Source: a virus. From it: a stretch of 64,000 nucleotides of DNA. The notes under the pieces are model-generated. The model saw only the letters and a program-made list of their open reading frames with translations, was not told the origin of the DNA and did not search any database. Location: IMG/VR virus record IMGVR_UViG_3300028840_006907, positions 405,618 through 469,617 of that record; one strand, written 5' to 3'. Positions within the stretch are counted from its first letter, which is position 1. Each line of letters starts with the position of its first letter. Below, piece after piece: positions 32,399 to 34,038 of this stretch. The translations under genes and the position numbers were made by a program.

Positions 32399-32782
32399 AT
32401 GTGGTGGATTTTTGATTTAGATGCTGAAAATCCAGGAATGTTATTATTGAAAATATTTCTCATGATCACTTTTTTAGGAGTTTCTTGGTTGAGTTATGAA
32501 TTCTATCCAGATATTCTCGGTTTAAAAAGAGAAGCAGTTGTAAATAGTCATCAATATATTGAGGCAAGCAGAAGTAAACTTTCGAAACTGGCTACTGAGT
32601 ATCGGTCAGCTTCAGTTGATATTGCAACTTATAAATCTGCTGAAGGTGATTTTGAGGAATTAATTGAACAATTAACTGCTCAGAAAATAGCCATTAAAGA
32701 TCAGATAAAAACAGAAGTTACAAAAATACCAGAAAATGAAATTCCTTCAGAGGTAGTTAGAATATTGGAGGAAGAAGAGTGA
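32399..32782 (+). CDS. hypothetical protein with N-terminal hydrophobic segment (127 aa)
   Basis: AAGGAGG RBS; stop overlaps the next start. Confidence 0.45.
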   Translation: MWWIFDLDAENPGMLLLKIFLMITFLGVSWLSYEFYPDILGLKREAVVNSHQYIEASRSKLSKLATEYRSASVDIATYKSAEGDFEELIEQLTAQKIAIKDQIKTEVTKIPENEIPSEVVRILEEEE

Positions 32783-33438
32783 AAAAGAAATGGCCTTTAA
32801 TTTTAATAATATTTATGTCGTTAATGATGATTAACAGTGATAGTGACTGTGATTCTCAAGAACGTGAAGATAGAGCTTCAGTAAGGAAACAGCAAGAGCA
32901 TTATCGTATAAGTCAACCAGTGCCTTTTTATGAATGGAGCATTGAACTTGATGCAGCTATCCAAATATATGATGCTAGGGTTCGGGATCGGGTAAGAACT
33001 TGGACAGTATGGCGTTCTGATTATGGTTTGATCGAAGGTCATTGTGCTTCTATTGGTTATCCTATTCCTTATGATGTTCAGTTAACCAATCCTCTTAAAC
33101 CTGCTTATAATAGCAGTGGGTCTGTTGTAGAACAGGCAGAACCCAGTGGCCTTTATTCTTCTCATAATTCAATAGCTACATGGGTAAGAATGGTTCTTAA
33201 TGTCAGAGGAAAAACAATGGTCACTCCTGTTTATATAGAATCAAAAGTAACTTGTTACGCGGTCCCTATAACAGTTGACTATGAAAAAAATAAAGTAACT
33301 ATAATATCTGATGTAAAACCTTCTATTGTTTTAAAAGACAATGAGGCAATGTATAGAAAGAAAAAGTTAAGTGCACAGGATTCAGTAAATTTACAGAATC
33401 AGGTGGATAAATTGAAGAAAAAGAATAGTGATAAATAA
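32779..33438 (+). CDS. secreted hypothetical protein, tandem paralogue A (219 aa)
   Basis: N-terminal signal-like segment; shares PVPFYEWSIELDAA and HCASIGYPIPYDVQLTNPLK with 33469..34038. Confidence 0.6.
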   Translation: MKKKWPLILIIFMSLMMINSDSDCDSQEREDRASVRKQQEHYRISQPVPFYEWSIELDAAIQIYDARVRDRVRTWTVWRSDYGLIEGHCASIGYPIPYDVQLTNPLKPAYNSSGSVVEQAEPSGLYSSHNSIATWVRMVLNVRGKTMVTPVYIESKVTCYAVPITVDYEKNKVTIISDVKPSIVLKDNEAMYRKKKLSAQDSVNLQNQVDKLKKKNSDK

Positions 33439-33468
33439 TTAATTATCTTTTGAAAATAGGAATAAAAA

Positions 33469-34038
33469 ATGAAAAATAAGATCCAAATAATATTAGTAAT
33501 TATAATGTCAATCTTTTCGATGAATTTCGTTTGTGATTGGCAGGAACGTGAAGATAGAAAATCAGTAATAGCACAACAAGATCATTATAGAAAAACGCAA
33601 CCGGTGCCTTTTTACGAATGGAGCATTGAGCTTGACGCAGCAACACAAATTTATGATGCTAGGGTTCGGGATAAGGTGCGTACATGGACCGTGTGGCGTT
33701 CTGATTATGGCTTAATTGAAGGTCACTGTGCTTCGATAGGATATCCTATCCCTTATGACGTTCAATTAACAAATCCACTTAAAACATCCTCAGATGGGGA
33801 TGTCATTGAGCAAGCTGAACCAAATGGCCTTTATTCATCTCATAATTCCACAGCTACCTGGGTAAGAGAGGTAATAGAGATTAATGGTAAAACAGTTGTA
33901 ACTCCTACATATATAGAATCCAAAGTAACTTGTTACGCTTATCCTATAAAAGTTGATTATGAAAAAAACAGAGTTATTCGGATGCCTAATGTAGCACCTT
34001 CAATAATATTGAAGGATAATAAACCCAAAAAGAAATAG
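33469..34038 (+). CDS. secreted hypothetical protein, tandem paralogue B (189 aa)
   Basis: Signal-like N-terminus; long protein and nucleotide identity blocks with 32779..33438. Confidence 0.6.
   Translation: MKNKIQIILVIIMSIFSMNFVCDWQEREDRKSVIAQQDHYRKTQPVPFYEWSIELDAATQIYDARVRDKVRTWTVWRSDYGLIEGHCASIGYPIPYDVQLTNPLKTSSDGDVIEQAEPNGLYSSHNSTATWVREVIEINGKTVVTPTYIESKVTCYAYPIKVDYEKNRVIRMPNVAPSIILKDNKPKKK

Follow-up and report, generated by a model that had tools for sequence, protein, structure and literature searches.

A two-gene cassette for a single-pass membrane protein and a probable lipoprotein in phages of diderm and monoderm bacteria, with the lipoprotein gene duplicated in a very large phage

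Imm and Spackle of phage T4 are early envelope proteins of a virulent phage, which shield a cell that is already infected against superinfection and lysis from without. Phage lipoproteins also act at the envelope, such as T5 Llp, Cor of phi80 and N15, and Ltp of the Streptococcus phage TP-J34, the last being an example from a phage of a monoderm host. In two-component spanins, namely lambda Rz/Rz1, N4 gp60/gp60a and T4 PseT.3/PseT.2, adjacent or overlapping genes encode a type II membrane protein with a helical domain and then a lipoprotein. Here we describe a gene pair with a likewise adjacent arrangement in a 64,000-nucleotide stretch of viral DNA (IMG/VR record IMGVR_UViG_3300028840_006907, positions 405,618 to 469,617; hereafter the window), where a gene for a small membrane protein, the partner, is followed by two tandem paralogues, A and B, of a lipoprotein-type gene. 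The duplication itself is ordinary; the interest lies in its context, a two-gene cassette of partner and lipoprotein.

The paralogues and their upstream partner

Both paralogues lie on the + strand, A at 32779..33438 (219 amino acids, GTG start) and B at 33469..34038 (189 amino acids, ATG start), exactly where the first-pass annotation of this DNA had placed two adjacent related genes. Their products share 74% identity and 83% positives over 189 residues (BLASTP, E 2e-103). The body motif quoted in that annotation is present in both copies, and their similarity is not of the low-complexity kind. At the DNA level, a repeat finder detects direct repeats of 252 nt at 82% and 226 nt at 74% identity between the two genes. 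A and B are paralogues that encode exported phage proteins, with a similarity far beyond chance.

Protein identity is uneven along the chains: 45% in the signal peptides, 95% in residues 45-107, 68% in residues 108-150 and 70% at the C-termini, copy A having an extra Lys-rich C-terminal tail of ~30 residues. The earlier description of diverged middles is right as far as residues 108-150 differ more than residues 45-107; the divergence is modest, however, and the signal peptides and C-termini differ too. Each copy is preceded by a Shine-Dalgarno-like motif on the + strand, read from the sequence, 7 nt 5' of its start codon: GGAGG (32767..32771) within the end of the partner gene for A, and AGGA (33458..33461) in the 30-nt intergenic spacer for B.

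The partner gene (32399..32782, + strand, an open reading frame call) encodes a protein of 127 residues that crosses the membrane once: a short N-terminus leads into a single hydrophobic helix of 19 residues (13-31), and a helical, cysteine-free extracytoplasmic part of ~80 residues follows. A conserved juxtamembrane motif, R-x-x-V-x-N-S-H-Q-Y, lies just outside the membrane. The TGA stop of the partner overlaps the GTG start of copy A by 4 nt (GTGA).

This arrangement is nearly universal. Of 88 non-redundant loci, 87 have by profile search a partner homologue that ends between -11 and +70 nt 5' of the lipoprotein gene, and the sole unpaired locus is cut off by a contig end; a 4-nt start/stop overlap is found in 23 of the 87 paired loci. 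Clustering of the neighbours in 59 loci gave neither a third conserved gene nor a recurrent endolysin or holin beside the pair, which argues for a self-contained two-gene cassette. The obligatory upstream membrane partner is the key context that the first-pass annotation lacked.

A short motif recurs near the membrane anchor of both proteins, at a similar distance: V-x-N-S-x-Q-Y in the partner and V-x-x-Q-Q-x-x-Y in the lipoprotein. In a profile-profile comparison of the two families (hhalign), the best local alignment falls on V-x-x-[SQ]-x-Q-Y with a probability of 2%, which is not significant, and we do not accept homology of partner and lipoprotein through this motif. It may reflect a common contact near the membrane, or chance. 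As a separate observation, the 270,653-bp record IMGVR_UViG_3300023283_000076 (loci L035 and L064) carries the pair at two distant places, at ~84 kb and ~15 kb; its second lipoprotein gene seems fragmentary, and this dispersed duplication is unlike the tandem one of the window.

The N-termini of A and B are signal-peptide-like, as had been proposed: a K-rich start (MKKK or MKNK) is followed by a 13-residue hydrophobic core (mean Kyte-Doolittle hydropathy 2.7) and then by Cys24 in A or Cys22 in B. Hydropathy analysis shows no second hydrophobic segment in either protein. Copy A has the non-canonical context S-D-S-D-C-D around Cys24, its SDSDC being kept in orthologues P0012-P0016; copy B has M-N-F-V-C-D around Cys22, and the M-N-F-V-C box is conserved within its own clade. 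Two further cysteines, 89/159 in A and 87/155 in B, occupy position pairs of which neither is invariant in the family.

That the proteins are targeted to the envelope, as suggested earlier, gains support from the family consensus, which is a lipoprotein signal. A strict lipobox ([LVI][ASTVI][GAS]C, for example L-A-G-C or V-L-G-C) is present in 64 of 120 homologues and a relaxed one in 9, and nearly all of the 120 have a cysteine at the aligned position, 10-20 residues before a conserved Q-Q-x-x-Y. A canonical lipobox occurs in 57 of 60 members of a clostridial subfamily. Copies A and B have typical n- and h-regions but unusual boxes, and are probably lipid-anchored in the window phage. The homologues of Vibrio phages PG11 and AG74 have a cleavable-type signal without any cysteine, so lipid anchoring is impossible there. 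For PG11 (locus L001, 4932..5474, OP745480.1), the deposited coding sequence is annotated from an internal Met, which leaves out the 18 residues of the signal peptide, MKKFLILSAIVLSTGVWA; the extended reading frame has a 4-nt overlap with the partner stop, like that of copy A.

Among 119 diderm-type members, 58 have Asp or Glu directly after the lipid cysteine, A and B of the window among them. Such a residue at this position is the inner-membrane retention signal in E. coli, a rule established for enterobacteria only. Inner-membrane retention of the lipoprotein is possible, provided that the hosts in question follow this sorting rule.

Age of the duplication and extent of the family

The first-pass annotation saw long nucleotide identity blocks and took the duplication to be recent; neither view holds. 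The longest perfect run is 21 nt, and nucleotide identity is 74% over 189 aligned codons. By the Nei-Gojobori method (NG86), synonymous divergence (dS) between A and B is 1.29 overall and nonsynonymous divergence (dN) 0.18. In a neighbour-joining tree of the closest 31 homologues, drawn without bootstrap, A and B fall in separate clades, each with orthologues from other contigs. A 5.9-kb contig of the European Nucleotide Archive (L091) has the order partner, A-type gene (220 amino acids), B-type gene (211 amino acids), as in the window. Two intact lipoprotein genes are found only in the window lineage and in L091; another contig, L092, has one copy, which groups with the A clade, and the same synteny with an AAA ATPase gene as the window.

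On this comparative evidence the duplication is ancient and the copies are strongly conserved. In the core (residues 45-107), dS is 1.17 and dN only 0.035 (NG86), with omega of ~0.03: high dS with low dN indicates that the resemblance is kept by purifying selection. A and B share a single partner gene and differ chiefly at three places, namely the signal peptide, residues 108-150 and the tail at the C-terminus, a pattern consistent with sub-functionalisation.

A word-indexed search found 327 homologues of the lipoprotein, and an exhaustive profile search gave 691 family clusters at 50% identity (E <= 0.001). All are stand-alone proteins of ~90-250 residues; no domain fusion was found among the 691 clusters. 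Across 71 diverse members 21 residues are invariant, many of them within one loop; the invariant loop residues include Y96, D97, T101, N102, E114, Q115, E117 and W131. PHROG 24725, of unknown function, matches copy A with E 2.4e-08 and copy B with E 1.1e-08, over residues ~46-142. No family member has an informative name or a Pfam domain, and the literature that we found on phi3626, Thalassavirus, spanins and exclusion lipoproteins does not describe the family. The sole database entries are true homologues, all recorded as hypothetical or of unknown function: Gp44/Gp45 of Clostridium perfringens phage phi3626, gp163/gp164 of the Thalassavirus phages, PHROG 24725 and PHROG 26268. The window phage differs from them in its two lipoprotein copies and the unusual residues before the cysteine, the Vibrio versions having no cysteine.

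Cultured carriers of the pair are diverse. They include Vibrio phage PG11 (Schitoviridae, N4-like), about 20 Vibrio phages of the genus Thalassavirus (Demerecviridae, T5-like), Synechococcus phage S-SRM01 (Kyanoviridae, a T4-like cyanophage) and phi3626, which we take to be a temperate siphovirus. Metagenomic carriers include contigs of 409 kb and 586 kb. The protein of copy B is recorded in identical form on contigs of up to 469,617 bp and on a 388-kb contig of the Joint Genome Institute (JGI), which indicates that the window belongs to a very large phage. No GenBank phage matched the 12 kb surrounding the locus by megablast. At least 248 proteins make up the clostridial subfamily, some of them from C. 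perfringens chromosomes and Romboutsia genomes, and the phi3626 subfamily is ~26-32% identical to members of the main family. A search of 185,579 species genomes gave only 22 hits, each in an assembly that was built from a metagenome or from an uncultured isolate. Clostridial prophages apart, the family is essentially confined to phages.

Identity of ~45-50% and the motifs are kept across phages of very different hosts, which bears on a simple role for a phage lipoprotein, receptor masking of the T5 Llp or phi80 Cor kind. Here the lipoprotein would exclude superinfecting phages by blocking a specific host receptor. Such a role would suit a phage-encoded lipoprotein gene outside structural and lysis modules, and divergent duplicates could cover two receptors. 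Receptors, however, differ among Vibrio, Synechococcus, Clostridium and the hosts of huge phages, yet this level of identity is retained, and the carriers have podovirus, siphovirus or myovirus tails with different receptor-binding proteins. Neither Llp nor Cor shares the strict need for a membrane partner, and neither resembles the lipoprotein in sequence or fold. More generally, Llp, Cor and Ltp are single-gene, host- or phage-specific and fast-evolving, and are unrelated to the pair in sequence and fold. We consider receptor masking improbable.

Predicted structures and the comparison with spanins

For copy B, an alignment of 71 sequences gave an AlphaFold2 (AF2) model with a predicted local distance difference test score (pLDDT) of 84. 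In it, the helix after the cysteine is continuous with that of the signal peptide and ends at residue 43; an extended Q-P-x-P-F-Y-E-W-S segment follows this first helix, then a second helix (53-67) and a beta-rich domain. The mature lipoprotein is modelled as a folded domain of ~165 residues. A long loop (~98-127), modelled with lower confidence, contains its most conserved motifs, G-Y-P-I-P-Y-D-V-Q-L-T-N-P and E-Q-A-E-P-N-G-L-Y-S-S.

The partner model (pLDDT 74) is all helical, with helices at residues 12-50, 52-80, 86-107 and 117-124. The membrane helix would run into a juxtamembrane helix, followed by a hairpin (52-80/86-107) of roughly 4 nm and a short C-terminal helix.

The gene layout invites comparison with two-component spanins. 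The partner would then be the i-spanin and the lipoproteins the o-spanins, which would span the periplasm and, at lysis, bring about fusion of the inner with the outer membrane. The layout matches well: a type II membrane protein with a helical periplasmic domain precedes a lipoprotein gene, and the genes often overlap. Besides, the best PHROG match of the partner, which has no Pfam match, is a Rz-like spanin family, albeit a weak one (E 0.058), and no spanin is annotated in the 40-kb region of Vibrio phage Luma (Thalassavirus) that we read, nor in PG11.

The proteins themselves argue otherwise. Spanin lipoproteins are small: Rz1 is short and Pro-rich, N4 gp60a has 56 residues, and in some spanins the lipoprotein is a small beta peptide. 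The lipoprotein of the pair is instead a folded, conserved domain. About 96% of known spanins have periplasmic cysteines for intermolecular disulfides; the window partner has none, and its lipoproteins have the two further, non-invariant ones noted above. Across 40 partner members the extracytoplasmic part measures ~55-85 residues; modelled as a hairpin, it would be too short to cross the periplasm. Rz and N4 gp60, for comparison, have ~130-140 periplasmic residues (PMC6139136; bioRxiv 10.1101/2025.11.12.688109). Apart from one marginal coiled-coil match, there is no sequence similarity between spanins and the pair.

Lipidation and host range point the same way. A lipobox with its cysteine is obligatory for an o-spanin, whereas both Vibrio phage versions have no cysteine; the frequent acidic residue at +2 of the lipoprotein (Asp or Glu) and the non-canonical -1 residues of the window copies also speak against such a role. 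In addition, phi3626 carries the pair although its host lacks an outer membrane, and so does a large clostridial subfamily.

The pair also lies in the wrong place. Unlike spanin genes, it is found outside lysis cassettes and never adjoins an endolysin or holin gene in the loci read. In the window, genes for a family A DNA polymerase (PolA), a sigma factor, a glycosyltransferase and an AAA ATPase lie upstream of the pair, and genes for a zinc ribbon, a NADAR protein and a vault-like protein downstream. In PG11 the pair is between the RNA polymerase and DNA polymerase genes, and in phi3626 between the genes for a single-stranded DNA-binding protein (SSB) and regulators and a recombinase gene. 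In Luma it lies 5 kb downstream of a holin/M15 endolysin pair, with unrelated genes between; other loci have assorted accessory genes around it. In the loci with annotated neighbours, the pair is therefore among replication and accessory genes, outside late and lysis modules.

Altogether, the pair is not a spanin: the spanin function is largely refuted as a general one, and we give it next to no credence. Because it has the gene layout of spanins, architecture-based spanin finders would mislabel it.

Possible roles at the cell envelope

Both products are expected at the outer face of the cytoplasmic membrane, the partner held by its helix and the lipoprotein by its lipid, or free in the periplasm in the case of the Vibrio phages; in monoderm hosts, the cytoplasmic membrane is the only option. 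Their gene linkage suggests that the two proteins form a membrane-proximal complex, and translational coupling with near-perfect co-occurrence argues for a stoichiometric one. The gene neighbourhood suggests that the complex would be made with early or middle non-structural genes, before the late genes.

The complex would act, through the invariant loop motifs of its lipoprotein, on some part of the envelope that diderm and monoderm hosts share. That the family is conserved in phages of Proteobacteria, Cyanobacteria and Clostridia speaks for a target present in all three groups; neither a variable receptor nor a variable protein of some competing phage would account for this conservation. Most plausibly, the target would be peptidoglycan itself, or the enzymes that synthesise or cleave it. 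The likeliest effect would be to shield the infected envelope from a second breach, either as superinfection exclusion or as resistance to lysis from without, and two diverged paralogues would widen or tune the protective activity. The guess of the first-pass annotation, superinfection exclusion or modification of the host envelope, is a plausible candidate role.

We tentatively favour such a membrane-proximal, envelope-guarding complex made before the late genes, comparable to T4 Imm plus Spackle. These T4 proteins are the closest functional analogy, one being a membrane protein and the other (Spackle, gp61.3) a periplasmic one. They share no sequence or structural similarity with the pair, their genes are non-adjacent, and Spackle is small and helical.

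Several points weigh against this proposal. Phage-excluding proteins usually evolve fast, and the unusual conservation seen here is no less compatible with an enzyme, or with a protein that modulates host machinery. No homology links the family to a function: for both copies and the partner, Pfam and NCBIfam gave nothing, and PADLOC nothing convincing. No relative of solved structure was found by sequence or fold, profile searches of the PDB with both families giving chance or coiled-coil matches only. Comparison with the characterised exclusion proteins Llp, Cor, Ltp, Imm, Sp and SieA gave no sequence or fold homology. The physical interaction of partner and lipoprotein we infer from gene linkage alone, and the expression timing from gene neighbourhood only; a promoter and terminator scan was uninformative, with fewer hits than in shuffled sequence. 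Finally, the window copies are non-canonical before the cysteine (D or V at -1), which makes their lipidation uncertain.

A modulator or enzyme of the host wall or division machinery is nearly as likely as envelope guarding, and equally tentative. The membrane-anchored pair would bind, inhibit or modify a universal extracytoplasmic machine or substrate (penicillin-binding proteins, the FtsQLB or DivIB-DivIC-FtsL divisome, lipid II or peptidoglycan), halting division or remodelling the wall for phage production rather than excluding other phages. The extreme conservation in phages of Proteobacteria, Cyanobacteria and Clostridia, with its very low omega, speaks for such a protein, as do the clustering of invariant Glu, Asp, Arg, Asn, Tyr and Trp residues in loops and the position of the pair among early/middle-type genes. 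The partner, moreover, resembles FtsB, FtsL and DivIC in gross build, with a single-pass helix and a short coiled coil of ~100 residues. Against this role, neither DivIC, FtsL nor any enzyme family was matched at E up to 1, there is no fold match to a hydrolase, transferase or inhibitor, and no catalytic domain is fused to any of the 691 family clusters.

A broader proposal encompasses the common features of the pair: an as yet undescribed extracytoplasmic two-protein system of virulent and temperate phages of diderm and monoderm bacteria, directed at a universal envelope target (peptidoglycan or its machinery) and with a lipoprotein fold absent from solved structures. We judge this to be close to evenly balanced, if slightly on the doubtful side.

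Several features of the window around the cassette are recorded here in their own right. The PolA gene (22473..26261, + strand, 1262 amino acids) has its DNA_pol_A domain in two stretches and a LAGLIDADG_3 domain at residues ~812-877, which looks like an intein or homing-endonuclease insertion; PolA has no close cultured relative, the identity being at most 31%. Directly 3' of it is a sigma-70-like factor (26512..27273, + strand) with Sigma70_r2 and a GerE/LuxR-type C-terminal region. The AAA ATPase (30093..31682, + strand, 529 amino acids), encoded two genes 5' of the partner, matches the PADLOC model IetA with E 2.9e-24, and L092 has a similar 523-residue AAA gene in the equivalent position.

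After the duplicated genes comes a double zinc-ribbon protein of 65 amino acids (34057..34254, + strand; PHROG 2834, E 4e-13); a 64-residue Lar-like zinc ribbon is found in a similar position in L091. The NADAR-domain protein (34276..35112, + strand; E 1.5e-51) has a C-terminal extension encoded by a repeat at 34751..34840, with three perfect-to-98% copies of a 30-nt unit for NRRNNTMNNE. The vault-like/SPFH protein (35187..37628, + strand, 813 amino acids) has an MVP shoulder (E 1e-23), a Vault_3 repeat and a weak SPFH/Band 7 match. Its gene begins 1.1 kb 3' of the lipoprotein genes, and S-SRM01 has, immediately after the pair, a gene with the annotation 'membrane protease subunit'; across the 59 loci, the linkage of a vault-like gene to the pair is not recurrent. 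At ~45000 of the window the coding strand and the GC skew switch together, from + strand and positive skew to - strand and negative skew. A search of the entire 64 kb gave no tRNA gene.

The cassette is common to N4-like, T5-like, T4-like, huge and clostridial phages. It is strictly linked and under very strong purifying selection, and it has no name, no Pfam model and no structural relative. If the broader proposal is true, the pair would be a new class of phage envelope effector, neither a variant of spanins nor one of known exclusion proteins. Cultured carriers with tractable hosts exist, namely Vibrio phages AG74, Luma and PG11 as well as phi3626, so that the question is open to direct test. 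That the pair is kept among phages and hosts this dissimilar points to a shared and so far unrecognised step of infection at the cell envelope.

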